Counted from the first letter of the stretch, positions 5,270 to 53,254 are shown. The stretch: 64,000 bases of DNA from an uncultured Gammaproteobacteria bacterium (GCA_964452565.1 CAYVLY010000001.1:78638-142637); one strand, 5' to 3'. Notes: a model not told the origin generated them from the sequence alone. Made by a program: numbers and translations.

Positions 5270-5995
5270 ATGTCAGGCAAATCAAAGCCTTTGATCGAGC
5301 TCAAAGATATCTACAAAAATTATGTAAATGACGATGTCGTGACGCGTGTGCTTCGCGGCATCTCTTTGACTATTCAAGAAGGAGAGTTTGTAGCGATCAT
5401 GGGTCCATCTGGCTCTGGAAAGTCAACTTTGATGAACATTTTGGGATTTTTAGATTCTGTTACCTCTGGTGACTATGAGTTTAAGGGTCATAATGTGTCA
5501 GGCCTGAGTGATGATCAAAAGGCGATCATGCGCCGCAAAGAGGTGGGGTTTGTCTTTCAGACGTTTAATCTACTGCCTAGAACATCAGTTTTGGAAAATG
5601 TTACTCTTCCGATGATCTATGAGCGGATTCCTGAAGCAAAGCGTCGTGTAATGGCAAAGAAGGCGCTAAAGACTGTAGGGCTGGAACATCGGCTTGACCA
5701 CCTTTCAAACCAACTCTCTGGAGGTGAGAAGCAGCGCGTAGCTATCGTTCGCGCAGTTGCTAATGATCCAAGCATAGTCTTTGCAGATGAGCCAACAGGA
5801 AACCTTGATACAAAGACAGGCGAGGAGGTTTTAATCATGTTTCAAAAGCTACACAAAAAAGGACGAACGGTCATTATGATTACACACGAGCAAGAGGCTG
5901 CAGAGTTTGCAGAGAGAATCGTATCGATTCGTGATGGAAAGATTGTATCAGACACAACAGGTCATAGCCGACGAACAGGGAGGTTTCATAAATAA
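5270..5995 (+). CDS. ABC transporter ATP-binding protein (MacB/LolD-type)
   Basis: Walker [10 protein letters not shown], signature [14 protein letters not shown], Walker [14 protein letters not shown]-loop ITHE. Confidence 0.85.
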
Positions 5996-5997
5996 AA

Positions 5998-6057
5998 GTG
6001 ATTAGAGGTTATAGAAGTGATAAAAAATAATTATCACCTCTAATTACCTCTAATCAC
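5998..6057 (+). promoter_or_regulatory. Nested palindrome in the ATPase-permease intergenic region
   Basis: GTGATTAGAGGT (5998..6009) pairs with ACCTCTAATCAC (6046..6057); inner GTGATAA/TTATCAC (6017..6037); repeated cctctaat and taatcac units. Confidence 0.5.
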
Positions 6058-6073
6058 CTTTAATCACTTCAAA

Positions 6074-7312
6074 ATGCTTTGGAAAGACCTAATCACATCA
6101 TCAACTGTATCGATTCGACGAAATAAATCTCGAAGCGCTTTAACGATACTCGGAATAGTTATCGGAATCGCATCGGTTATTTTGATGTTGTCGATTGGTA
6201 AAAGTGCTGAGGGATTGATCTTGTCGCAGGTTTCAGATCTTGGATCTGATTTAGTTTTTGTAGAAGCAAGTGCCGGTGACCCAACTGAAGGACCGCCTAA
6301 TCCATTCATTGAACAAACAATCACAAGAGATGATGAGCACGCGATTGAGAAAAGCGGATTGTTCAGTGCTGTAAGTTCTATCTTAGCGTCAACTGAAACA
6401 GTCTCTCACGATCAGGAGACCATGTATGCAAGTATAAATGGAACTGATGAGGATTATATTGATATCTTTCCAGCTGATTTGCTCTACGGACGATCATTCA
6501 CATCGTCTGACATTGATAGTTACTCACGAGTTGCTGTATTGGGAGTTGACCTCGCTGAAGATTTATTTGGAGAGCAGGATCCAACTGGCATGAAATTAAA
6601 GATTGGGAACGTTTCCTTCCGCGTTATCGGTGTTTTTGAAGAACAGGGAACTCGATTTTTTCAAGATCTAGATATGCAGATGAGTGTGCCAATCACAACA
6701 ATGCAGCAGGATTTAATGGGCGTTGATCATGTCAGTTACCTAGCGGCAAGGGCACTGCCTGATATTGAGTTGGATTATGCCAAAGATGAAGTAAGGTTCA
6801 TTTTGCGAGATGAGCATGATATTGATAACCCGCAGCGTGACCTGGATTTGGATGACTTTTATGTATCATCACAAAGTGACGCCGAAGAGATTATAGGCAT
6901 TGTAGGAGATGTGCTAACGATATTATTATCATCAATTGCTGCAATCTCATTAGTTGTTGGTGGTATTGGTATCATGAACATTATGCTTGTGTCAGTTACT
7001 GAGCGGACGCGTGAGATTGGTTTGCGAAAGTCTATTGGAGCCACGCGTGGTGAGATTTTGCAACAATTCTTAGCTGAGGCTGTGTTGTTGACTCTGATTG
7101 GTGGAATAGTTGGAGTTTTAATGGGAGTTTTGGCATCTATTGTCATCGCACTTGGTGCAAAGTACTTCCTTGAAGATTGGTCGTTGTACATTCCGCTGAG
7201 CGCGATTGTTGCTGGTGTAGTTGTTGCAACATGCGTTGGAGTTGTATTTGGAGTATATCCAGCTAAACGTGCAGCAAATCTTGATCCAATTGAGGCGTTG
7301 AGGTACGAATAA
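6074..7312 (+). CDS. ABC transporter permease, FtsX/MacB-like (4 TM + large periplasmic domain)
   Basis: N-terminal TM, ~250-aa extracytoplasmic domain, C-terminal FtsX-like TM bundle. Confidence 0.8.
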   Translation: MLWKDLITSSTVSIRRNKSRSALTILGIVIGIASVILMLSIGKSAEGLILSQVSDLGSDLVFVEASAGDPTEGPPNPFIEQTITRDDEHAIEKSGLFSAVSSILASTETVSHDQETMYASINGTDEDYIDIFPADLLYGRSFTSSDIDSYSRVAVLGVDLAEDLFGEQDPTGMKLKIGNVSFRVIGVFEEQGTRFFQDLDMQMSVPITTMQQDLMGVDHVSYLAARALPDIELDYAKDEVRFILRDEHDIDNPQRDLDLDDFYVSSQSDAEEIIGIVGDVLTILLSSIAAISLVVGGIGIMNIMLVSVTERTREIGLRKSIGATRGEILQQFLAEAVLLTLIGGIVGVLMGVLASIVIALGAKYFLEDWSLYIPLSAIVAGVVVATCVGVVFGVYPAKRAANLDPIEALRYE

Positions 7313-7334
7313 AATTAAAATACAACTGTGGATA

Positions 7335-10343: not shown

Positions 10344-11081
10344 CTAGGCCTCGAATTCACCGAGTGTCTTGAGGCATTGGGTCAGGTGGTTCTTGATCGC
10401 GGCTTGGTCGAGGATGAAGCCATGATCTCCATAGACACGATGCACAGTCACGTCCTGGTCACAGTACTTGGCATCGTAGTAGAACAGGTCGTTGTGAGGG
10501 ACGACTGCGACCACAGGGCACTTCAGTGGGCCGGTATTGCCGTGGAAGAAGGGCAAGGGAACCAGCCTCAGGCAGCAGCGCATGGGCTCGGGGCGTACGA
10601 TCTCGATGAGTTCCCGAGCCTTTCTGCTGGAATGGGCTTCGCCACGCTGCTCCCAGTTGAAGAAGGCCCTCCGGATCCTATCGAGGTTGTCGAGTGTCAC
10701 GTTGCCGGCGAAGAACCCGCGGAAGAATTCCCAGGGGATCGTCAGTACGCCGCGGACGTAGCCCCAGAAGGGCAGGCCGTACTGCGTAGTGGCTGCGAGC
10801 AGGATCACACTACTGAAGAGCTTGGGATTGTGGCGCGCGAGACGGCGGAGTGGAACGCCACCCATGGAGTAGGCGATTCCGATCACACCCTCGGTGATGC
10901 CTTCGTCGCCGAGCTGCTGCTTGCACGCGTCGACCATCTCGCGGACAGTGGTACCCTTGTAGCGCATGATGATCACGCGGTAGTCGCGGTCCGTGAAGAA
11001 TTCGATCACGAACTTGAGCCAGAGCTCAACGACTCCGCGGCTCCAGGCGCCAGGGAAAAGAACAACAGTCTTCTGCTTCAT
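10344..11081 (-). CDS. Alpha/beta-hydrolase fold protein (GxSxG nucleophile elbow GIAYSMGG)
   Basis: AAGGAG RBS 6 nt before ATG (MKQKTVVLFPG); GYSMGG motif, C-terminal His (GDHGF); GC-rich codons. Confidence 0.65.
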   Translation of the reverse strand: MKQKTVVLFPGAWSRGVVELWLKFVIEFFTDRDYRVIIMRYKGTTVREMVDACKQQLGDEGITEGVIGIAYSMGGVPLRRLARHNPKLFSSVILLAATTQYGLPFWGYVRGVLTIPWEFFRGFFAGNVTLDNLDRIRRAFFNWEQRGEAHSSRKARELIEIVRPEPMRCCLRLVPLPFFHGNTGPLKCPVVAVVPHNDLFYYDAKYCDQDVTVHRVYGDHGFILDQAAIKNHLTQCLKTLGEFEA

Positions 11082-11189
11082 CTTTGGCTCCTTCTGGTCC
11101 ATCCTTGGACCTGCCAGCTTGGGCGTCATGCCCTTTCTCGAAGCCGAGTACTACACCATGATTAGCGACTTTTGTCAATTAAAACATAA

Positions 11190-11284: not shown

Positions 11285-12160
11285 TTGAGTGCAACTACAC
11301 TTCTTGTCCTGTTGGCAATGGCGCTCTTCGGGGGCTTTGCTGATGCATTCCGAAAGGTCGTGCTCGGGAAGCTCGGTCTGTATTCAACTGTGGGGTTCAT
11401 CTATCTGGGTTTTGCATTGCCCTTTGGAATCGCCTTCATGATCGTCACCAGAACATATCCGATCATTACTAGCAGTCTGATTGTGGCACACATGACTGCA
11501 CTTCCATTTGTCGGCCTGACAGTGGTTCTGTTCTACAGTGCGTTGCAGAAGACGGACTTCTCGATTTCTGCATCCATCTTCGGATTGGCGCCAGCAACTG
11601 CCATGATTGGAGAGTGGATTATTGGACGTTCCGAGCCAAGCTGGGCTGGAGCGCTTGGGATCCTCGTTGTGTCACTCGGTGCTTATATCCTTCATCTAGA
11701 CGCCTTCAAACATGGGCCGCTGACGCCGTTCAAACGGTTGCTCAAGGATCGGGGCGCCAGGCACGCACTTTACGCAGTGATTGCTATCGCGATCGCTATT
11801 CCATTCCAGCGTGAGGCTGTCTGTGTCTCCAAGAGTCCCGGATTCTGGATGGTCGTGGAGTCGAGCCTATGCATTCCGTTCCTGCTCTTTGGGGTGATCA
11901 AGGAGCGCGCCAAATGGCAGGTCACCACACAAACCAGGCTTTTCACCTTAGGCGCCGGGTCCATGTGGAGTATACATGGGATTTTGCTCTACACGGGTCT
12001 TCAGCTCACGCTCGGTGGATATGTCATGGCCATGCGTTCGTTGGCACTACTAGTCGGCTTCACGCTCGCTTACTTGATCCTCAGGGAAAAGGTGCGTTCG
12101 CGTATTCCTGGAATGCTTGTGATCATCATCGGAACGTTCGTGATCTCGCTCCTGGCTTGA
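11285..12160 (+). CDS. EamA/DMT-superfamily transporter (10 predicted TM helices)
   Basis: TTG start with GGAGA RBS; two repeated 5-TM halves; GC-rich. Confidence 0.65.
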   Translation: MSATTLLVLLAMALFGGFADAFRKVVLGKLGLYSTVGFIYLGFALPFGIAFMIVTRTYPIITSSLIVAHMTALPFVGLTVVLFYSALQKTDFSISASIFGLAPATAMIGEWIIGRSEPSWAGALGILVVSLGAYILHLDAFKHGPLTPFKRLLKDRGARHALYAVIAIAIAIPFQREAVCVSKSPGFWMVVESSLCIPFLLFGVIKERAKWQVTTQTRLFTLGAGSMWSIHGILLYTGLQLTLGGYVMAMRSLALLVGFTLAYLILREKVRSRIPGMLVIIIGTFVISLLA

Positions 12161-16319: not shown

Positions 16320-16332
16320 AAAAGAAATAAAA

Positions 16333-16358
16333 AACTCTCGACTTCGGTCGGGAGTTTT
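16333..16358 (+). terminator. Hairpin AACTCTCGAC-ttcg-GTCGGGAGTT + TTTTATTTT
   Basis: 10-bp stem with one G-U pair, T-run. Confidence 0.6.
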
Positions 16359-16431: not shown

Positions 16432-18033
16432 ATGGAGGCCATTTATCAATGGTTTACAAACTACTTAGCAACAACCCCACCTGATCAGCTTGGTGTTGAT
16501 ATTTTGCTTTACTTTGGATGGTTCCCGATTTTTTCGATTGTCGTATGGGGATTTTTGCAGATTTGGACAGATGTAAAACAAGGGCAGTATTGGGAAAAGC
16601 TTGAGTGGGATTTACTCGCAGTTACAATCCCACAAGATGCAGTTCAGACCCCAAAAGGAATGATGAACTTCTTTAACAACCTTTCAGGAAGTAAGTCTGC
16701 AATCACTTGGAAAGAAAAATGGTTCTGGGGAAAGTTTCAGGCCTACTTTACATTTGAGATTGTAAGTAACGGTGGACATATCCAGTATTACATTCGTACT
16801 ATCAAAAAATACCGTGATCTTGTCGAAGCAGCGCTTTATGCTCAGTATCCAGAAGCTCAGATCGTTGAGGTTGAAGACTATGTTGATCAGATTCCAAATG
16901 ATTTTCCAAACGATGAATGGGACTGTTTTGGAACAGAGCTCAGCATGTCCAAGGATCATATCTACCCAATCAAGCGCTTTGAAGACTTTGAGCATGTTGG
17001 TGAGAAGGATCTCAGATTCAAAGATCCGATCCTTCCAATGCTTGAGATGATGGGAAAGATGAGACAGGGTGAATATTACTGGATCCAGCTTTTGATTATG
17101 GGACCTGAGGGTCAGGATTGGCGTAAAGATGCAGCTAAATGGATGAAAAAGATGTATGGAATCGAGGATAAGAAAAAGAAGGGTCTCATTGAGAGTTCTA
17201 TTGGCTGGGTTCCAGCTGGTATTTTTGAACAAGTAACAGGGACGGCATTTGGTGCAGGGGATGAGCCTTCAGCAGATGATTTCAGAATGTGGAAAATGAC
17301 ACCAGACGAGCAAGATACTTTAAAGGCAGTTAATGAAAAATCAAAGGAGATAGGATGGCTTTCAAAGATCAGAATGGTTTATTGTGCAAGAAAAGAGGTA
17401 TTTCGAAAGGGAACAATTGCTTCAATGACAAAGGGGATCTTTTTACAGTTTGATTCTAGGATGAATAAACTCGGACTCACCGCTAATGTTACGACGAAAG
17501 ATGATTACTTCTGGCAGGAATGGCAAATGCCTGGAAAACAAAGGACTTTGGTTAAGAAATATAAGAACAGGTCCTTTGGTGCGGGGACAACCCCTTACAT
17601 TCTTTCATCTTCAGAGCTTGCAACTTTATGGCACTTTCCACCAGCTGACGCTAGGACACCAGTTCTTACTTCTCTTGGCGCGCGTATGGCAGAAGCTCCT
17701 GTTGAGCTAGGATTTGCACGTGATGAAGAATCGATTTTACCGAACATTGAGAGAAGCTCATCAGATGTTGAGGGTTCTGCGCCAGTTCGTGCAGAGGCTG
17801 CTCCAGAGTTTGTACCAGAGACTCCTACACCAACAGCGCCAACTACATCTGCACCAGCAGAGCAATTTGAACCTACAGTTCCTGAACCAGCCGCACCAAC
17901 TCAGGTGGAAGAGGTGTTAGCACCTGATAAGCCAGAATTTCAAGCTGGCATGCCAGCCCCAATGCCACCAGGGCTTGATATATCTGATATAGATGTCGAA
18001 CAAGCTGGGGCGCCTGACGATTTACCAGTTTAA
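16432..18033 (+). CDS. Membrane protein homologous to the N-terminal domain of the fused VirD4-like protein 38857..41355; Pro/Thr/Ala-rich C-terminal tail
   Basis: TGCTATAAT extended -10 ends 8 nt before ATG; IQYYIRTIKKYRDLVEAALYAQYPEAQIVEVEDY matches ITFYITVPRYMQNFVEQQLHAQYSAAAIEPVKDY, and ELATLWHFPPADARTP matches EELAGLWHLPIPSTETP. Confidence 0.6.
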   Translation: MEAIYQWFTNYLATTPPDQLGVDILLYFGWFPIFSIVVWGFLQIWTDVKQGQYWEKLEWDLLAVTIPQDAVQTPKGMMNFFNNLSGSKSAITWKEKWFWGKFQAYFTFEIVSNGGHIQYYIRTIKKYRDLVEAALYAQYPEAQIVEVEDYVDQIPNDFPNDEWDCFGTELSMSKDHIYPIKRFEDFEHVGEKDLRFKDPILPMLEMMGKMRQGEYYWIQLLIMGPEGQDWRKDAAKWMKKMYGIEDKKKKGLIESSIGWVPAGIFEQVTGTAFGAGDEPSADDFRMWKMTPDEQDTLKAVNEKSKEIGWLSKIRMVYCARKEVFRKGTIASMTKGIFLQFDSRMNKLGLTANVTTKDDYFWQEWQMPGKQRTLVKKYKNRSFGAGTTPYILSSSELATLWHFPPADARTPVLTSLGARMAEAPVELGFARDEESILPNIERSSSDVEGSAPVRAEAAPEFVPETPTPTAPTTSAPAEQFEPTVPEPAAPTQVEEVLAPDKPEFQAGMPAPMPPGLDISDIDVEQAGAPDDLPV

Positions 18034-18034
18034 T

Positions 18035-20125
18035 ATGCCAATGCGATACCCGCATGATCACGAAAATGACGTAATATATTTCGGACGAGTTAATTTCCGT
18101 AATAAATTGCAAACCTTTGGGGTAAAAACTGACGATAGACGTCGGCATATTTATGTTGTTGGAAAAACAGGTATGGGTAAAACAACCCTGCTTGAAAACA
18201 TGATACTTTCTGACATCTATGCTGGACATGGCTGCGCTTATATTGACCCTCACGGAGATACAGCTGAGAAGTTGCTTGATTATATTCCAAGTTGGCGTAT
18301 CAATGATGTTGTTTATTTTGATCCATCAGATCTTGAACACCCAATCGGATTTAATATTTTGGAAGCAGTAGATGAGAAAATGAAGCATTTAGTTGCAGCA
18401 GGGATGATGTCAGTGTTTAAAAAAATCTGGGAAGGAGTCTGGTCTGCACGAATGGAATACATCTTGAATAACACGATCTTGGCTTTGATGGATACACCAA
18501 AGACAACACTTCTTGGAATTAATAGAATGCTCTCAGACGATTCGTATAGAAAAGAGATTATATCAAATGTAAAAGATCCGATCGTTAAGCAGTTCTGGGT
18601 GATGGAGTTTGAAAGTTATCAGTCAAAGTTTGCTTCAGAGGCTGTAGCCCCGATTCAGAACAAGGTTGGTCAGTTTCTTTCAGCGAGCATTATTCGAAAT
18701 ATCGTTGCTCAGGCCAAATCATCCATGAATATTCGTGAGTTAATGGACAATCAGAAGATTTTTATTGTTAATCTATCAAAGGGACGCATTGGAGAAGATG
18801 CTTCAAGGCTGCTTGGAGGGCTTTTGATTACGAAAATTCAGATGTCTGCGATGGAACGAGTTGATGTGCTTGAGGAGGAGCGACAGGATTTTTACATGTA
18901 CGTTGATGAGTTCCAAAACTTTGCAGTTGAATCATTTGCTTCTATTTTGTCTGAGGCGCGAAAGTATCGACTAAACTTGGTCATGGCGCATCAGTATATT
19001 GCACAGCTTACAGAAGAGGTACGTGATGCTGTTTTTGGTAACGTTGGAACAATAATTACGTTTCGTGTTGGTGGGCCAGATGCTGCTTTTATGGAAGAGG
19101 AGTTCATGCCAAGGTTTTTACCAAATGACATGATCAACCTTCCTAAGTTCCATGTTTATCTAAAGTTGATGATCGATGGAGTTACATCTCAGCCATTTTC
19201 AGCACTGACATTGCCTCCAATCGCAACAAACACTAGTTCACGTGAAAGAGTTGTGGAGCAGTCTCGCGAGCGTTATGCTGGGAGTAAGGAAAAAATTGAG
19301 GAAAAGGTTGCTGAGTGGAGTGGGTTTGGAAAAGATGTTGATTTAGAAGGTGAATACGCTAAAGCAAAGCAGACCAAAAAGGATGCTAAAAAGGCAAGAT
19401 TTTCACATGAGTACACATGCACGCGCTGTGGAAAGGTATTCCCATTGCCAGTTGAGTTGGATCGATCAAGACCGATTTATTGTGAGGAATGTCATCCGAT
19501 TGTAATGGAAGAGAGAAAGAGTGGTAAAAAAAGAGGCGGTGAGAAAAGACAGTCTCGGGAAAGAGAAAAGAAAGTAGTTGAAAAGCCGCCAAAGGTTGAT
19601 GAGGGTGAGGTTATAGAAAAGGACACTGGAAAGACAGTGGGTCTTGATGCTTTGTCGTCCGATAAGATTAAAGACAAGAAGGAAAGAAAGCCTGAACCAG
19701 AGAAGAAAAAAGAAAAGCCAAAGCCAGAGATCGAGGCTAAGGAGATGATGGATCAGAACTCAGAACTCAGAACCCAGAACGCAGACAAAGATCAAAATCT
19801 GAAGAACCAATCAGAAGGGCAGGAGAAAAGGCCTGATCGGCCTAAGCAGGAACCAAAACCTGATAAAAGACCGCAGCAAAGAGAGTCACGGCAAAGGGGT
19901 GATCAACAAGATCGATCAAGTCAACAAGAGCAGCCAAAGCGCAAGCGACGTAGGAGAAAGAGGAAGAAGAAACCGGGTGGAGGATCTGGGAATCAAAATC
20001 AAGCAGATTCTTCGACTAGGCCTCAGAAAGACGTAGATACTGGTAAAAAGCCAAAGGCAGATAGGTCAAGAGATAATAAAACCCAATCAGTACTTCCTGG
20101 CGAACGAGTGACATTCGAGGAGTAA
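18035..20125 (+). CDS. VirD4/TraG/TraD-like type IV secretion coupling ATPase with C-terminal zinc ribbon and Lys/Arg/Glu-rich disordered tail
   Basis: Walker A VVGKTGMGKTT, Walker B YVDEFQNF, MAHQY; CTRCGK..CEECH CxxC-CxxC motif; (CAGAACN)x4 microsatellite at 19754..19786. Confidence 0.75.
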   Translation: MPMRYPHDHENDVIYFGRVNFRNKLQTFGVKTDDRRRHIYVVGKTGMGKTTLLENMILSDIYAGHGCAYIDPHGDTAEKLLDYIPSWRINDVVYFDPSDLEHPIGFNILEAVDEKMKHLVAAGMMSVFKKIWEGVWSARMEYILNNTILALMDTPKTTLLGINRMLSDDSYRKEIISNVKDPIVKQFWVMEFESYQSKFASEAVAPIQNKVGQFLSASIIRNIVAQAKSSMNIRELMDNQKIFIVNLSKGRIGEDASRLLGGLLITKIQMSAMERVDVLEEERQDFYMYVDEFQNFAVESFASILSEARKYRLNLVMAHQYIAQLTEEVRDAVFGNVGTIITFRVGGPDAAFMEEEFMPRFLPNDMINLPKFHVYLKLMIDGVTSQPFSALTLPPIATNTSSRERVVEQSRERYAGSKEKIEEKVAEWSGFGKDVDLEGEYAKAKQTKKDAKKARFSHEYTCTRCGKVFPLPVELDRSRPIYCEECHPIVMEERKSGKKRGGEKRQSREREKKVVEKPPKVDEGEVIEKDTGKTVGLDALSSDKIKDKKERKPEPEKKKEKPKPEIEAKEMMDQNSELRTQNADKDQNLKNQSEGQEKRPDRPKQEPKPDKRPQQRESRQRGDQQDRSSQQEQPKRKRRRRKRKKKPGGGSGNQNQADSSTRPQKDVDTGKKPKADRSRDNKTQSVLPGERVTFEE

Positions 20126-38323: not shown

Positions 38324-38860
38324 ATGCCTGATGAGGAGGTAAAAGTCGAAAAGCAAACTAGTACGGCCCAAGAGCAAGGGCCTGATTTAGGTTTAGAAAG
38401 AGAGGTGCCAGCAGAAGTTAAAGAAGAGGTTCGTGAAGCTGAAAAAAAACCAGAGGCTAAACCTGAAAAGATTGAGCCAGAAAAGCCTCAGGAAGCTCCA
38501 GAAGTATCAGTTCCAAAAGCTGTTCCTGAAGAGCCAACTCAGGCACCAATAAAGAAAGATGAAATCTTAGTTGATCTAGAGGGTATTCTCGCAGATGATT
38601 TAACTGAAGTTTTTTTGGAGTTACCTGATGACAAGAAACTTGCTTTTAAGAAAAAGGGTGAGGAAGTTGCAATAAGAGTCTATGAGATGATCCACTCCGG
38701 AAAAGTTAAGGTTGGAAAGATTTTAGGTTGGATCCGCGAATGGCTTCGAATGATCCCAAGAGTTAATAAGTTTTTTATTGATCAAGAGGCTAAGATTAAG
38801 GCAGACAAGATTCTCACGTACGCAAGAGATCAACAAAAGCGTCGTCAAGATAAAATATGA
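38324..38860 (+). CDS. Hypothetical protein with acidic Pro/Glu/Lys-rich N-terminus
   Basis: ORF; 4-nt overlap (ATGA) with the next gene. Confidence 0.5.
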   Translation: MPDEEVKVEKQTSTAQEQGPDLGLEREVPAEVKEEVREAEKKPEAKPEKIEPEKPQEAPEVSVPKAVPEEPTQAPIKKDEILVDLEGILADDLTEVFLELPDDKKLAFKKKGEEVAIRVYEMIHSGKVKVGKILGWIREWLRMIPRVNKFFIDQEAKIKADKILTYARDQQKRRQDKI

Positions 38861-41355
38861 TCGAAGAGTTTTTAAACAATCCACTTATGCTGGTGTACCT
38901 GTTGCTAGGGGTTGTTTTGATTTTTGCAATCATTATAGCGGTGCTATTTTTTGTCAGAAAGTATTTAAGAAAGGGACAGATGATGCGTGGAGGCGAGTTC
39001 TCAGGCGTCACAATGATGATTACTGTGCCAAAGTTCAAAAGTGAAGCAGAATCAAAGAGTGATGAAAAGACAGCTGACATTAAGGAAGATATTGCAATAG
39101 CTGAGACATTTTTCGCTGCAATTGGTGGTCTAAAGCCTCAAAAAGGATTTAAGCCATGGCTTTACGGAAGAACAGATGAAATTGCACTTGAAATGGTTGC
39201 ACATGAAAAGGTTATAACGTTTTACATCACAGTTCCTCGCTACATGCAGAACTTTGTTGAGCAGCAACTTCATGCTCAATACAGTGCCGCAGCAATTGAA
39301 CCAGTGAAAGATTACAATATATTTTCACCAAGTGGAACCATTGTTGGTGGTTATTTGGTTTTGAAGCGTGAGAATGCATTACCTATCAAAACGTATACCG
39401 AAATGGAGGGCGATCCGCTTAATGCAATTACAAATGCTCTCTCAAAGGTTCCAGAAGGTGATGGTGTGGCTGTGCAGTACGTTGTTCGATCAGCAAGAGG
39501 AGAATGGCGGTCATTAGGAAAGAAGATCGTCAAGAACATGAAAAAGGGAATGGGCTATGAGGAAGCAAAGAAAGGAGGGGACTCTGGATGGGGAAAGATG
39601 CTAAAGTCTCAGGTATCAAAGACTGATGAGGGTCCAAAAGAGCCAAGGCAACTTTCTGCTACAGAGCAAAAGATGATGGAGGGAATTGAAAAGAAGGCCA
39701 GCAAGGCTGGGCTTGATATAAATGTAAGAATTGTTGCGAGCGCACAAAGCTCTGATGCTGCAACAATGTACTTGAATCAGGTTTTGCAGGCTTACAACCA
39801 GTACAACATTTACGAATACGGAAATTCATTTGAAAAGTCAGTTCCAAGACGTAGTACCTTAGTTCAAGATTTTATTTATCGAAAGTTAAGGAGTAAGTAT
39901 AAGCTCGTTCTTAATACTGAAGAGCTTGCTGGACTTTGGCATCTTCCAATTCCTTCAACTGAAACCCCGAATATCCGTTGGATGCTAGCAAGAACAGCGC
40001 CAGTACCGCCTGAGGTTCCAGATGAAGGTGATTTTAAGATTGGACACAATATATATCGTGGACATAAAACAGATGTTTTCATGAAAAATGAGGATCGTAC
40101 GCGACACATGTACGTCCTTGGTAAAACCGGTACTGGTAAATCTGTATTTTTGCGGTCAATGGCAATTCAGGATATTAAGAATGGAAAAGGTGTTGCTGTG
40201 ATTGATCCACATGGTGATTTAGTTGATGCAATCATGGGCCAGATCCCAAAGGAGCGCATTGATGATGTGATTTACTTTAATCCGTCTGACACGGAGAGGC
40301 CAATGGGTCTTAACATGCTTGAGGCTAAGAGTGAAGCTGATCGCGATTTTGCGGTGCAGGAGATGATCTCAATCTTCTACATGTTGTTCCCACCAGAGAT
40401 GATCGGTCCGATGTTTGAGCACAACATGCGTAACTTTATGCTGACTCTGATGGCTGATCAGGAGAATCCTGGAACAATTGCAGAGATACCGCGAATGATT
40501 TCAGACGAAAAGTTCCAAAAGAAGTGGGTGTCAAAAGTTAAAGATCCAGTCGTTAGATCCTTCTGGGAAGACGAAATGGCAAAGACTTCTGATTATCATA
40601 AGTCTGAGATGATGGGATATCTTGTATCAAAAGTTGGTCGTTTTGTAGAAAACGAGATGATGCGTAACATCATCGGTCAGTCAAAATCAGCATTTAACTT
40701 TCGCGAGATAATGGACGAGGGCAAGATTTTGCTTGTGAACCTTTCGAAAGGTAAAACTGGTGATGTAAACGGAAACCTACTTGGACTAATCATGGTATCG
40801 AAGCTCCAAATGGCAGCGTTTGGCCGAGCAGACATGGCAGAGGAGGATCGAAAAGATTTCTTCTTGTATGTTGATGAGTTCCAAAACTTTATTACGCCTT
40901 CAATCGCGACAATCCTGTCTGAGGCTAGAAAGTATCGATTAAATCTTATAATGGCCCATCAGTACATGGGGCAATTAATAAAAGACGGTAAGACTGAGAC
41001 GCGGGATGCCATTTTAGGTAACGTTGGAACAACGCTTGTATCAAGAATTGGTCCAGAGGATGTTGAGATTTTATCGAAAATATATGAACCGACTCTATCT
41101 GGTTATGATTTGATGAATAATGAGGAGTTTGCATGGAATGCGCGTATCATTGTAGATATGTCACAAACAAAGCCATTTACACTGAAGGCAGAGTGGCCAG
41201 GAAAGCATAATCAAAAGTTAACCGATGCTCTTAAGGAGGTATCTCGACTTACATATGGACGGCCAAAGGATTTGGTTGAGCGTGGAATCGCACTGCGAGC
41301 GGGAATTGGAGCAAAGCGTGAAGTAACAAAGCCTCCGATGCCAACAGGGCGATAG
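38857..41355 (+). CDS. Fused membrane N-domain + VirD4/TraG/TraD-like coupling ATPase (paralog of 16432..18033 + 18035..20125)
   Basis: N-terminal TM; Walker A VLGKTGTGKSV, Walker B YVDEFQNF, MAHQY; N-terminal 350 aa homologous to ORF 16432..18033. Confidence 0.8.
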   Translation: MIEEFLNNPLMLVYLLLGVVLIFAIIIAVLFFVRKYLRKGQMMRGGEFSGVTMMITVPKFKSEAESKSDEKTADIKEDIAIAETFFAAIGGLKPQKGFKPWLYGRTDEIALEMVAHEKVITFYITVPRYMQNFVEQQLHAQYSAAAIEPVKDYNIFSPSGTIVGGYLVLKRENALPIKTYTEMEGDPLNAITNALSKVPEGDGVAVQYVVRSARGEWRSLGKKIVKNMKKGMGYEEAKKGGDSGWGKMLKSQVSKTDEGPKEPRQLSATEQKMMEGIEKKASKAGLDINVRIVASAQSSDAATMYLNQVLQAYNQYNIYEYGNSFEKSVPRRSTLVQDFIYRKLRSKYKLVLNTEELAGLWHLPIPSTETPNIRWMLARTAPVPPEVPDEGDFKIGHNIYRGHKTDVFMKNEDRTRHMYVLGKTGTGKSVFLRSMAIQDIKNGKGVAVIDPHGDLVDAIMGQIPKERIDDVIYFNPSDTERPMGLNMLEAKSEADRDFAVQEMISIFYMLFPPEMIGPMFEHNMRNFMLTLMADQENPGTIAEIPRMISDEKFQKKWVSKVKDPVVRSFWEDEMAKTSDYHKSEMMGYLVSKVGRFVENEMMRNIIGQSKSAFNFREIMDEGKILLVNLSKGKTGDVNGNLLGLIMVSKLQMAAFGRADMAEEDRKDFFLYVDEFQNFITPSIATILSEARKYRLNLIMAHQYMGQLIKDGKTETRDAILGNVGTTLVSRIGPEDVEILSKIYEPTLSGYDLMNNEEFAWNARIIVDMSQTKPFTLKAEWPGKHNQKLTDALKEVSRLTYGRPKDLVERGIALRAGIGAKREVTKPPMPTGR

Positions 41356-50289: not shown

Positions 50290-50368
50290 GTCATTCCTGC
50301 GTAGGCAGGAATCCATCAATTATCGAATTCGATAGTCGATGGATCCCCGATCGTAGTCGGGGATGACA
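50290..50368. repeat. Structured repeat element (copy D): GTCATTCC-hairpin-GGAATCCATC..TCGATAGTCGATGGATCC-hairpin-GGATGAC
   Basis: ~80% identical to 53258..53338, with a compensatory stem change (a-c to g-c) supporting a conserved secondary structure. Confidence 0.7.
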
Positions 50369-50383
50369 AATTTTGAAGTACAT

Positions 50384-51541
50384 ATGGGACTTTTTTCAAA
50401 AAAAGAAGAATCAGCTGCCGGGATGATTGGAGTTGATATTGGAGCTGGTGGAATCAAGATGGTAGAACTCTTGCCACAAAGGGGAAGGGTGAAGCTTTCC
50501 ACCTATGGTCATGCTGAGCGTAAGTCACATACTGACGGTGCGTTGATTGATCAACCGCAAAAAGCAGCAAAGCTTATCCAAGAGATCATTAAAAAATCTG
50601 GGATGAAATCAGCTCAAGTGAATGCGGCGCTTCCATCACAGGCCGTGTTTCATGCGATTGTGACTATTGCCCAACCGAAAAGTAAAAAAGAAGATCTAAA
50701 GCCGCTTATCGAAGCTCAGGTAAAAAAGCTTTTACCTCGACCGCTTGATGAGATGATTTTGGACTCAACAGTTATTGATAAGCATCTTTTGCCAAAAGAT
50801 GAGCCACAGCCGAAAAAGAAACCAGAAAAAAAGGGTGAGAAAAAACAGGAAGGCAAAAAAACTGAGGAAATTCTGAAACGAAAAGAGCGAAAGCATATTC
50901 GGGTATTGATTTCAGGTGCGCCAAAAGATTTAGTTCAAAAGTACGTTGATATCTTCAAGCTTGCAAAGTTGCAACTCTCATCGCTTGAGACTGAGTCGTT
51001 TGCATTAATCCGATCGCTGATTGGAAAAGACATGTCACGAATCATGATTGTTGATATTGGGTATGAGCGTACAAATATTAATATTGTGAATCATGGTATT
51101 CCGTTCTTGCACCGTTCAATCAAAGCTGGTGGTATCAATGTTACAAATGCGATTTCAAAGCAGATGGGCGTATCCCCAGCGCAGGCTGAGCAAGTAAAGT
51201 TTGATCTTGCAATTGCGGCTCAAAAAGAACAAAAGATGCCAAATGTTGTGCGTGAGGCAGTAATGCCAATCTTGCATGAGGTCAAGTATGCACTTGAGCT
51301 TTACGATCAACAGGACTTTCACGAGCACTCAACAGTTGAAAAGATCATCTTAACAGGAGGATCTGCACACCTGCCATTCCTAGACCCATTTTTAACTGAA
51401 GCACTAAATATAAACGTATATTTGGGTAATCCATGGGCTCGTATTGCCTCACCAGAAGGGTCTCAAGTGGTTTTGAGTGAGATAGGACCACGAATGGCAG
51501 TTGCAGCAGGACTAGCAATGAAAATGCTTAAAGACGCATAG
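50384..51541 (+). CDS. pilM: Type IV pilus assembly protein PilM (actin-like ATPase)
   Basis: GVDIGAGGIKMVEL N-terminus, actin-fold motifs; Lys/Glu-rich insertion; start set at ATG 50384 because ATG 50363 lies inside the repeat. Confidence 0.75.
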   Translation: MGLFSKKEESAAGMIGVDIGAGGIKMVELLPQRGRVKLSTYGHAERKSHTDGALIDQPQKAAKLIQEIIKKSGMKSAQVNAALPSQAVFHAIVTIAQPKSKKEDLKPLIEAQVKKLLPRPLDEMILDSTVIDKHLLPKDEPQPKKKPEKKGEKKQEGKKTEEILKRKERKHIRVLISGAPKDLVQKYVDIFKLAKLQLSSLETESFALIRSLIGKDMSRIMIVDIGYERTNINIVNHGIPFLHRSIKAGGINVTNAISKQMGVSPAQAEQVKFDLAIAAQKEQKMPNVVREAVMPILHEVKYALELYDQQDFHEHSTVEKIILTGGSAHLPFLDPFLTEALNINVYLGNPWARIASPEGSQVVLSEIGPRMAVAAGLAMKMLKDA

Positions 51542-52462: not shown

Positions 52463-53254
52463 ATGATGGAAATCATCTGGACAATATTAGTGAGTCTTGG
52501 GGGAATCTGTGTTGGGTCATTCCTCAACACAGTTGTTTTTAGAACACAAAAAAATATCCCGATAAAAGAACGGTCAAAGTGTATGAAGTGCATGAAGCCT
52601 ATTCATTGGGTTGATAAGGTGCCGATTGTTAGTTTCTTTAACCTCAAAGGACGATGCCGAAGCTGTTCTGATATTATCCCATGGCAATATCCAATAATAG
52701 AAATGGCAACTGGGATCTTGTTTGGACTATTATTTGTGCGTGCCTTGTTCGGATTTGGCTTTTTCGGATTTGAAAGTCACTCAGAGTGGTTGATTGTGTT
52801 TGCTCGCGATGCGATTATTGCTTGCTTGCTTTTGATCATATTTGTCTACGATTACAAATATTCGATAATATTGGATCGATTCTCAGTCCCTGCCATTGGT
52901 GCGGCAATCGTATTTAATCTGATTTTGGGTGGTGACTCTGCGGACATGCTTCTGTCTGGACTGTTCATTGGATCATTCTTCGCATTCCAGTTTCTGATTT
53001 CTCGTGGTAAGTGGGTCGGATCAGGCGACATTCGTATGGGACTTTTAATTGGATTTTTATTTGGAGCCAAACTTGGAGTCGTAGCATTGTTGCTTTCCTA
53101 CGTCCTTGGAGCACTGGGCGGGCTATTCCTGATCGTATTTAGGCATCGAAAGCTTGAAAGCCACGTGCCATTCGGTACCTTCATGTCGCTTGCGATTATA
53201 TTGACGCTGTTCTTTGGTGAAGCAATGGCAAATTGGTATCTGGGGATGTTCTAG
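52463..53254 (+). CDS. pilD: Prepilin peptidase (A24 family, PilD)
   Basis: N-terminal CxxC..CxxC zinc motif (CMKCMK..CRSC), polytopic membrane domain with conserved Asp residues. Confidence 0.85.
   Translation: MMEIIWTILVSLGGICVGSFLNTVVFRTQKNIPIKERSKCMKCMKPIHWVDKVPIVSFFNLKGRCRSCSDIIPWQYPIIEMATGILFGLLFVRALFGFGFFGFESHSEWLIVFARDAIIACLLLIIFVYDYKYSIILDRFSVPAIGAAIVFNLILGGDSADMLLSGLFIGSFFAFQFLISRGKWVGSGDIRMGLLIGFLFGAKLGVVALLLSYVLGALGGLFLIVFRHRKLESHVPFGTFMSLAIILTLFFGEAMANWYLGMF

Follow-up and report, generated by a model that had tools for sequence, protein, structure and literature searches.

Split and fused paralogs of a DUF8128-type coupling ATPase in Patescibacteria

Layout of the two loci

The DNA analyzed here is a 64,000-nucleotide stretch of a genome recorded as that of an uncultured Gammaproteobacteria bacterium (GCA_964452565.1, CAYVLY010000001.1:78638-142637; hereafter the window, with positions counted from its first letter), and at two places it carries genes for an ATPase of the type IV coupling protein (T4CP) kind together with an N-terminal domain of the family DUF8128 (PF26449). 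At locus 1 the two halves are separate, abutting open reading frames (ORFs), A (16432-18033) and B (18035-20125); the TAA stop of A occupies 18031-18033, and after a single base the ATG of B follows at 18035. At locus 2 both halves lie in one 832-residue protein (38857-41355). This is the arrangement described in the original prediction, a reading of the window's sequence that had proposed split and fused paralogs of an N-domain plus VirD4/TraG-like ATPase, and the Pfam matches given below and pairwise alignments bear it out. ORF A aligns with the N-terminal 390 residues of the fused protein (BLASTP E 1e-17, 24% identity over ~400 residues, including both motifs quoted earlier for the pair), which upholds the proposed homology of the N-domains, and B aligns with the C-terminal half (41% identity, E 2e-103). 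The features of the two loci are as follows.

16432-18033, + strand: ORF A, 533 residues, a stand-alone DUF8128 (PF26449) protein and the N-terminal half of the split coupling-type ATPase
16495-16566, + strand: single transmembrane helix of A (residues 22-45; helix 17-56 in the AlphaFold2 model)
16600-17661, + strand: globular DUF8128 domain of A (residues ~57-410, ~350 residues, confidently modeled), with conserved YAQYPEA and LATLWHFP motifs
17677-18033, + strand: disordered, proline-rich acidic tail of A, ending in the C-terminal motif (E/A)PPxNLP-phi, here APDDLPV (18010-18030)
18031-18037, + strand: stop-start junction TAA-T-ATG, with B in the +1 frame relative to A
18035-20125, + strand: ORF B, 696 residues, a TrwB/VirD4-type ATPase (nucleotide-binding plus all-alpha domain) without a membrane segment and with a zinc ribbon and basic tail
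18161-18184, + strand: Walker A of B, GKTGMGKT, invariant in orthologs
18902-18922, + strand: Walker B region of B, VDEFQNF, invariant in orthologs
19418-19492, + strand: zinc ribbon of B, CxxC-x17-CxxC (CTRC...CEEC), with the exact family spacing
19937-19972, + strand: polybasic run of B, KRKRRRRKRKKK, inside the low-complexity tail
20096-20122, + strand: extreme C-terminal motif of B, PGE(R/K)-phi-x-F-(D/E), here PGERVTFEE, conserved in orthologs
38857-41355, + strand: fused paralog, 832 residues, with a transmembrane helix (residues 4-39), DUF8128 and a TrwB-type ATPase
40120-40143, + strand: Walker A of the fused paralog
40870-40890, + strand: Walker B of the fused paralog

The frame of B is open upstream to an ATG at 17993, which overlaps the end of A by 41 nt (17993-18034), and the public gene call for B (P0241, 710 residues) uses this start. 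The true start is probably 18035 or 18041, and the 710-residue call over-extended, because B orthologs (n = 23) begin with MPMRY or MRY, equivalent to these two positions. In relatives the spacer between A and B is mostly 2-10 nt; such very short spacers suggest that the two genes are translationally coupled.

Gene fission at locus 1

A scan for the A-type motif in one genome per species gave 524 positive genomes, the best 80 of which were examined for their loci; where named, these 80 all belong to Patescibacteria (Uhrbacteria, Magasanikbacteria, Falkowbacteria, Veblenbacteria and the Parcubacteria group). In all 73 species-level loci that show both genes, A and B are two distinct ORFs, with a gap of 1-274 nt between them and with B in the 0, +1 or +2 frame relative to A in 34, 21 and 18 loci, respectively. 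Homolog clusters give the same picture: among the best 120 for A, every one is a stand-alone protein of 467-597 residues with PF26449 (DUF8128) only, and the best 120 for B all lack DUF8128 and carry ATPase families, often with the zinc finger PF23477. Both halves are strongly conserved (the B core is ~70% identical among orthologs), and the comparisons indicate that A and B are both under purifying selection.

A split of this kind could also come from a sequencing or assembly indel, from a recent frameshift that left a decaying pseudogene, or from programmed frameshifting or readthrough that yields a 1,230-residue protein, and the open frame of B across the end of A lends this some substance, since one indel within ~40 nt would fuse the ORFs. 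The variable gaps, the occurrence of all three frames and the separation of the ORFs in 73 of 73 loci rule out sequencing error, frameshift and programmed recoding, as no single recoding signal could serve such gaps and frames; the conservation of both halves and the MPMRY/MRY start shared by B orthologs likewise argue against an artefact, the likelihood of which we regard as negligible. The choice among fission, frameshift and sequencing error, posed with the original prediction, is thereby settled for fission by comparative data, and on these data the split at locus 1 is an old, fixed gene fission, with separate genes throughout the Uhrbacteria/Magasanikbacteria/Falkowbacteria part of Patescibacteria.

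The ATPase of B and its tail

In hidden Markov model (HMM) searches, B and the fused protein both exceed the Pfam thresholds for TrwB_AAD_bind (41.6 and 42.6 bits, respectively; cut-off 20.5), T4SS-DNA_transf (28.7 and 39.6 bits; cut-off 20.1) and TraG-D_C (23.8 and 28.9 bits; cut-off 22), the three families named with the original prediction. Among NCBIfam models, TraD and VirD4-like ones are matched below threshold only, and the VirB4 match (VirB4_plasma) covers the P-loop only. Profile alignment of the ATPase with hhalign gives 96.9% probability over 267 columns for TrwB and 8% for TrwK; TrsE and TrsK of pGO1 align at the P-loop only. These comparisons place the ATPase, by sequence, with T4CPs and not with VirB4, and the motor of B is predicted to be catalytically intact.

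The region of B after the ATPase is net basic, with 74 K/R vs 52 D/E in 266 residues. The zinc ribbon and charged tail expected in the split copy and absent from its fused paralog are both present in B, and the fused protein has no zinc ribbon, polybasic run or basic tail. Of 65 complete B orthologs, 57 have the four ribbon cysteines, 29 a run of at least six K/R and at least 38 the PGExxxF motif at the C terminus; precomputed matches to PF23477 are frequent among orthologs, and the N-terminal RYxHDHEND segment is nearly invariant. Ribbon and tail thus appear to be conserved features of the split lineage, which fits a divergence in partner or substrate recruitment. A second peptide in the tail, PKVDEGEV (19589-19612, just after the zinc ribbon), resembles the C-terminal PGERVTFEE, and both are conserved in orthologs; the two may be repeated docking peptides for one partner.

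ORF A and the fused paralog

Hydrophobic segments number one in A, one in the fused protein and none in B. No basic residues precede the helix of A, and K/R residues (lysines) come after it; because basic residues are found only on that side, the positive-inside rule predicts an N-out/C-in topology with the bulk of A in the cytoplasm. The "membrane N-domain" of the original prediction therefore stands as regards the membrane anchor, which is present, and falls as regards the rest: A consists of one helix plus a ~350-residue globular domain predicted to be cytoplasmic, and is not polytopic. In the AlphaFold2 model of A (61 homologs), residues 1-410 are confident, with a predicted local distance difference test score (pLDDT) mostly >90, and the tail is disordered. 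The tail contains 20 P, 22 D/E and 4 K/R in 106 residues, and the (E/A)PPxNLP-phi motif at its C terminus is conserved across the A family. In the A protein of Ca. Magasanikbacteria GW2011_GWA2_37_8 (L068), the PPMNLP motif is internal, not terminal.

The family name of A (PF26449) comes from precomputed annotation on the identical proteins P0001 and P0121 and on all listed homologs; the Pfam/NCBIfam scan used here, with a model set that lacks PF26449, gave no match for A. A profile search of 1.84 billion cluster representatives yielded 4,145 DUF8128 proteins at E up to 1e-3. By sequence, the DUF8128 profile found no match in hhalign comparisons with TrwK, TrsD, TrsE, TrsK, TrwB and TrwM and none among PDB sequences at E up to 10, and a single-sequence search of the PDB returned noise only. 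A relationship of A to TrsD, which is reported to be abundant in Patescibacteria, was considered and is unsupported by the hhalign comparison. By structure, the ten best Foldseek matches of the A model in the PDB are all TrwK/VirB4 of R388 (E 2.9e-5 to 1e-2, ~435 aligned columns), with nothing else below E 0.04; as modeled, the fold of A would match only the N-terminal domain of VirB4/TrwK.

The fused protein is modeled with a pLDDT of 90, and its all-alpha insertion comprises helices at 493-620, between Walker A and Walker B. In the PDB it matches full-length TrwK/VirB4 structures best, collinearly over 890-940 columns (E 9e-15 to 6e-13), with a global template-modeling (TM) score of only ~0.3, which indicates that both domains match TrwK and that their mutual orientation differs. 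The ATPase half superimposes on TrwB chains with TM 0.60-0.65 normalized to TrwB, a root-mean-square deviation of 6-7 Å and 16-18% identity; Cag-beta and HerA are the next PDB matches after TrwB. The fused architecture is itself conserved: of 120 clusters at ≥60% identity, 118 span 814-865 residues, and the others have 742 (labeled partial) and 793 residues.

Paralogy and phylogeny

We built a neighbor-joining tree of 29 sequences over 399 ATPase columns (200 bootstraps), with six plasmid or phage homologs plus TrwB and TrsK for comparison. The B proteins form a clade (92% bootstrap), as do the fused proteins (100%) and a third paralog described below (98.5%); B groups with the third paralog (87.5%), and all Patescibacteria copies group together (85.5%) to the exclusion of the mobile-element homologs and TrwB/TrsK. 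The phylogeny of the two ATPase domains that had been proposed as a check thus places the split and fused types in separate, supported clades that are jointly monophyletic. As fused forms lie outside the Patescibacteria clade, the tree is read most simply as showing that the gene was duplicated within this lineage and that one copy later split. The longest contigs listed for split-type and fused-type clusters have the same size in six cases (986404, 383515, 252277, 768188, 617687 and 105802 bp), consistent with both paralogs sharing contigs.

The third paralog, an ATPase-only protein of 470-484 residues, directly follows B in four loci of some Uhrbacteria and Parcubacteria-group genomes (L044 8301-9713; L045 8259-9704; L046 9522-10946; L049 9659-11113). 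It begins with ARRHEPPxxLP, the motif that ends ORF A, and branches with B.

Relatives on plasmids, in phages and in archaea

The family is widespread within Patescibacteria, and outside them it is found on plasmids and phages of monoderms and in archaea. Plasmid searches with tblastn matched 534 records, including Bacillus (288), Streptomyces (52), Staphylococcus (33), Clostridium (24), Sulfolobus (11) and haloarchaea. On B. subtilis NRS6107_2, B. methanolicus pBM69 and an Embleya plasmid, a fused homolog is followed directly by a relaxase of the replication-relaxation family and lies near genes for VirB3-like and VirB4-like proteins and a cell-wall hydrolase. The proteins of all three plasmids are annotated as "DUF87 domain-containing protein." That of NRS6107_2 matches both the DUF8128 profile (E 1.7e-7) and the ATPase profile (4e-40), and tblastn alignment covers query residues 100-813 in one segment. 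Since the plasmid DUF8128 protein coexists with a separate VirB4-like gene and adjoins the relaxase, it occupies the T4CP slot: the DUF8128-plus-ATPase protein on these plasmids is the coupling protein of a monoderm conjugation system. These proteins share the fused architecture of the Patescibacteria paralog and differ from it in setting, being plasmid-borne beside a relaxase, whereas the Patescibacteria copies are chromosomal orphans in a clade of their own. The T4CP of pLS20 (p48, two transmembrane helices, 786 residues) differs in layout and is distinct from the Bacillus homolog described here.

A two-gene arrangement like that of A and B recurs on the conjugative plasmid pHTS138 of Haloterrigena salifodinae (L091 7758-12051), where the gene of a 399-residue DUF8128 protein overlaps the start of that of a T4CP-type ATPase; profiles derived from the Patescibacteria proteins recognize both (E 1.2e-15 and 8e-49, respectively). 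This pair differs from locus 1 in that it lies inside a plasmid type IV secretion system (T4SS) cluster with a pilin and its ATPase has a different C-terminal extension of ~500 residues. The pHTS138 split is probably independent, because its ATPase does not group with Patescibacteria B, which makes more than one fission event probable. In the tblastn table, the two-feature pattern is shared by many further haloarchaeal plasmids.

Phage homologs, encoded by large Bacillus phages, belong to phrog_5156. The fused protein aligns with it at E 3e-75 (positions 72-804 of 824), A with its N-terminal part and B with its C-terminal part. These are full-length fused homologs, like the Patescibacteria fused paralog, and differ from the Patescibacteria copies in being phage genes without the zinc-ribbon tail; their function is annotated as unknown. 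Individual tblastn homologs include Bacillus phage G gp156, SPO1 gp27.4, 0305phi8-36 ORF201 and others. In predicted structure, phage G gp156 resembles the fused model with E 4e-50 and TM 0.61 over 870 columns. In the phage G region L092 2297-6439 its gene adjoins that of the VirB-like gp155, and in the SPO1 region L089 5779-9316 gp27.4 adjoins gp27.3, annotated "replication initiation by nicking." Several of the records with phage homologs are misannotated as "lipid A export ATP-binding/permease MsbA."

Comparison with coupling proteins and VirB4

Two well-studied families frame the Patescibacteria proteins. With T4CPs (VirD4/TraG/TraD, with TrwB of R388 as the prototype) they have in common a RecA-like domain that carries an all-alpha insertion and both Walker motifs intact, matches to the Pfam profiles above threshold and an overall fold like that of TrwB. 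They differ in lacking the N-terminal two-helix membrane domain, in place of which stand one helix and the 350-residue DUF8128 domain, as a separate polypeptide at locus 1, and in having no relaxase or T4SS genes adjacent at the Patescibacteria loci, an association seen only for the plasmid homologs. F-type TraD proteins have acidic substrate-binding tails; the tail of the split copy, by contrast, is a basic one with a zinc ribbon. With VirB4 (TrwK of R388; PDB 7O42, 7O43 and 8RTD) they would share, as modeled, the succession of a ~400-residue N-terminal domain and a TrwB-like ATPase domain, and the full-length TrwK match to the fused model (E 9e-15, ~900 columns) ranks above TrwB. The sequence signature of VirB4 is nevertheless absent: CagE_TrbE_VirB is not matched, and the NCBIfam and hhalign results for VirB4 and TrwK are those given above for B.

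Genomic context

Upstream of A lie MacAB-like ABC transporter genes and secD-secF; downstream of B, at spacers of 1-2 nt, follow uppP and genes for a PAS protein and a histidine kinase. The order SecD-SecF-DUF8128-ATPase-BacA/UppP is kept in two relatives (60% and 47% identity, with A-B gaps of 49 and 21 nt), and locus 1 keeps its synteny throughout the 80 species genomes that match best. Locus 2 is flanked by cysS and dnaX, and the order cysS ... small protein-fused gene-dnaX recurs in two relatives. These housekeeping neighbors (SecDF/UppP and CysS/DnaX) are kept in relatives down to ~32% identity of A, and the guanine-plus-cytosine (GC) content at both loci equals that of the flanks. Two further features belong to these neighborhoods.

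16331-16358, + strand: strong hairpin resembling a terminator, with a 12-bp stem, a TTCG loop and a T-rich tail, in the 112 nt that separate secF from A
38324-38860, + strand: small protein of 178 residues directly upstream of the fused gene, its stop overlapping the fused start by 4 nt

The hairpin suggests that secDF is transcribed apart from the unit A-B-uppP-PAS-kinase, so that the conserved SecDF-A-B order need not mean cotranscription. The 178-residue protein has an acidic, proline-rich N terminus and a conserved C-terminal region of ~90 residues (…GEE-x-A…WL-x-M-I-P…QEAKI…), and it has no Pfam, PADLOC or PHROG match. It is likely a partner of the fused protein, because homologs of 168 and 174 residues keep the same position, directly upstream of the fused paralog, in both relatives checked (L087 and L088).

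Besides the three proteins of the two loci, we scanned 30 of the 52 window ORFs of at least 150 residues. Among these 30 there is no VirB4, VirB6, VirB8, relaxase or integrase, in keeping with the earlier statement that the window holds no other T4SS components, and the only envelope machines are type IV pilus genes (PilM, PilD) and Sec/ABC components.

The Patescibacteria-specific SecDF-A-B-UppP order also occurs, at 50-60% identity, in many metagenome-assembled genomes titled "uncultured Gammaproteobacteria bacterium" (L011, L012, L015, L019-L023 and others); the names of these records look like placeholders or mislabels.

A possible role outside conjugation

We propose that locus 1 represents a fixed, ancient fission of a DUF8128-type T4CP and locus 2 its single-chain paralog, and that both motors have been exapted for a relaxase-independent chromosomal job; we put the probability of this reading at roughly 0.6. 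No DNA-transfer machinery lies near either core-chromosome copy in this tiny-genome member of the Patescibacteria, so the motors have probably been put to another use. Mechanistically, A would be anchored N-out/C-in and present a scaffold resembling the VirB4 N-terminal domain to the cytoplasm, and B would be made in step with A by termination-reinitiation at TAA-T-ATG. B could then dock noncovalently on A and rebuild the single-chain layout of the fused paralog; candidate contacts are the PPxNLP motif and acidic tail of A and the HDHEND N terminus and basic tail of B. By analogy with TrwB, the assembled motor may be a hexamer that is attached to the membrane and driven by ATP. The zinc ribbon and polybasic tail of B would be an added receptor, not found in the fused paralog, for nucleic acid or for an acidic partner, possibly the acidic tail of A. 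Motors taken over from conjugation in this manner would serve a chromosomal task that does not involve a relaxase. The likeliest such task is to deliver a polymer to, or take one up from, the T4SS-like channel of the lineage or some other channel in the envelope, with DNA or RNA a likelier polymer than protein.

Several observations weigh against this proposal. The substrate of the motor is purely a matter of inference, and the basic tail could bind an acidic protein instead of nucleic acid. The zinc ribbon is missing from 8 of the 65 B orthologs, and in the window's own B its HMM scores fall below the cut-offs (zf_Tbcl_2 (PF23477) and TIGR04272, with 21.0 bits against a cut-off of 27 and 19.7 against 36). 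Several relatives have A with B not found adjacent, which a contig end may explain in those not inspected; in L068, A (5905-7317) follows secDF by itself and the next ~5.8 kb contain no ATPase gene, which indicates that A and B are independent genes. The tree is a rough one, made by neighbor joining from a small sample of 29 sequences. Finally, the one genetic result in the phylum is that a t4cp homolog is nonessential for epibiotic growth of Ca. Southlakia epibionticum, a Saccharibacterium of another class (PMC12102498).

Of the competing explanations, those in which the motors handle protein or resemble FtsK are the main rivals to exaptation for a polymer channel. Many T4CPs, such as VirD4 and DotL, recruit protein substrates, and the two motors might likewise recruit or export proteins, either effectors of an epibiotic T4SS or envelope proteins together with Sec, with their tails as protein docking modules. 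The conserved synteny with secDF and uppP fits such a role, as do the conserved terminal motifs (PPxNLP-phi in A; DGExV and PGExxxF in B), which resemble peptide docking sites, and the Saccharibacteria T4SS has been proposed to be a protein exporter (PMC10633639). The hairpin between secF and A, however, means that the link to Sec may be one of position alone, nucleic-acid binding is the more typical role of zinc ribbons with poly-K/R runs, and no candidate substrate gene lies nearby; we consider protein recruitment unlikely. A housekeeping DNA pump of the FtsK kind, a membrane-anchored hexamer with a proline-rich linker that clears or segregates the chromosome at division or imports DNA in transformation, would share with these proteins the FtsK/HerA superfamily, the anchor and the linker; the zinc ribbon of DNA-binding type, the basic tail and the core-genome synteny would suit it, weak FtsK_SpoIIIE and HerA matches occur, and HerA is among the structural matches. 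It is quite unlikely all the same: the nearest relatives by sequence and structure are T4CPs, not FtsK, the FtsK gamma domain is absent, and paper titles point to at least one Saccharibacterium being discussed with FtsK.

The remaining explanations carry still less weight. If the loci were parts or remnants of an integrated conjugative or mobilizable element, A/B and the fused protein would do the usual work of coupling proteins and pass relaxase-bound DNA on to a T4SS whose genes lie elsewhere, as the genuine T4CP status of the family on NRS6107_2, pBM69 and the Embleya plasmid, beside a relaxase and VirB3-/VirB4-like genes, would allow; Patescibacteria do carry chromosomal T4SS clusters (PMC12102498). 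Yet a relaxase, an integrase, VirB genes and repeat boundaries are all absent from the vicinity of both loci, base composition follows that of the flanks, the housekeeping neighbors persist in distant relatives, and a survey of Patescibacteria counted only 109 relaxase homologs in 103 genomes against 5,713 T4CP homologs in 2,918 (Quinonero-Coronel et al. 2025, PMC12102498). A mobile island was rejected on the GC content, which equals that of the flanks, and on the lack of mobile-element genes among the scanned ORFs, and we judge the reading as parts of a conjugative element improbable. Anti-phage defense, in a module related to MADS (mad8) or to HerA-type systems, is suggested by the PADLOC mad8 profile, which matches the ATPase part in both B and the fused protein (E 4e-18 and 2e-17, respectively), and by weak HerA matches. 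The mad8 match covers the shared ATPase fold only, A and the 178-residue protein have no PADLOC match, no other defense component is adjacent, other MADS genes do not co-localize in the loci examined, and defense islands are variable, as opposed to a synteny fixed across 80 genomes; we rejected this reading as a fold-level match and hold it very improbable.

Exaptation of these motors bears on a gap in the description of Patescibacteria, which make up a large share of bacterial diversity, depend on host cells, are nucleotide-auxotrophic and, in the one genetically tractable member, have an essential T4SS-like system. Quinonero-Coronel et al. (2025, PMC12102498) counted about two VirD4-type genes per genome, only 148 of the 5,713 homologs being near virB4, and did not rule out exaptation, leaving the role open; Wang et al. 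(2023, PMC10633639) described an essential T4SS cluster without a recognizable coupling protein. In a literature search, DUF8128 was not mentioned, and nothing relevant was found on phage VirD4-like proteins or on coupling proteins with an N-domain like that of VirB4. At NCBI the proteins go by the name [quoted passage not shown] and in Pfam the N-domain is a DUF. None of the following appears to have been described: the split/fused pair, the predicted resemblance of the N-domain fold to VirB4, the conservation of tails and terminal motifs, the constancy of the synteny, and the link to the subfamily on plasmids, in phages and in archaea.

The present analysis gives the orphan VirD4-type genes of Patescibacteria an anatomy (DUF8128, two old paralogs, ribbon and tails, and synteny), ties them to a T4CP subfamily of plasmids, phages and archaea, and bears on the divergence of VirB4 and VirD4. 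A bolder version would hold that DUF8128 T4CPs are a surviving VirB4-VirD4 intermediate, a T4CP motor that has retained the N-terminal domain of VirB4, that the two or three Patescibacteria paralogs are core and relaxase-independent, and that the split copy with its zinc ribbon is the receptor or motor that moves host nucleic acid (RNA or DNA) across the epibiont membrane; we regard this combination as speculative and unlikely. A role in the uptake of host nucleic acid would, if true, be central to the life of nucleotide-auxotrophic epibionts. If the function proves to be ordinary coupling to a known T4SS, the result is useful annotation and not a discovery. The family itself is already annotated.

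Other features of the window

The type IV pilus genes lie some 10 kb from locus 2, with an unannotated 169-residue ORF between them.

50363-51541: PilM
52463-53254: prepilin peptidase PilD

Farther upstream in the window, the segment 10000-12000 has a GC content of 0.53 vs ~0.42 elsewhere. Each of its strands carries a long ORF, at 10344-11129 (minus strand, weak match to alpha/beta-hydrolases) and 10377-11165 (plus strand, no match), and an EamA-type transporter gene lies at 11285-12160. This segment may be foreign DNA.

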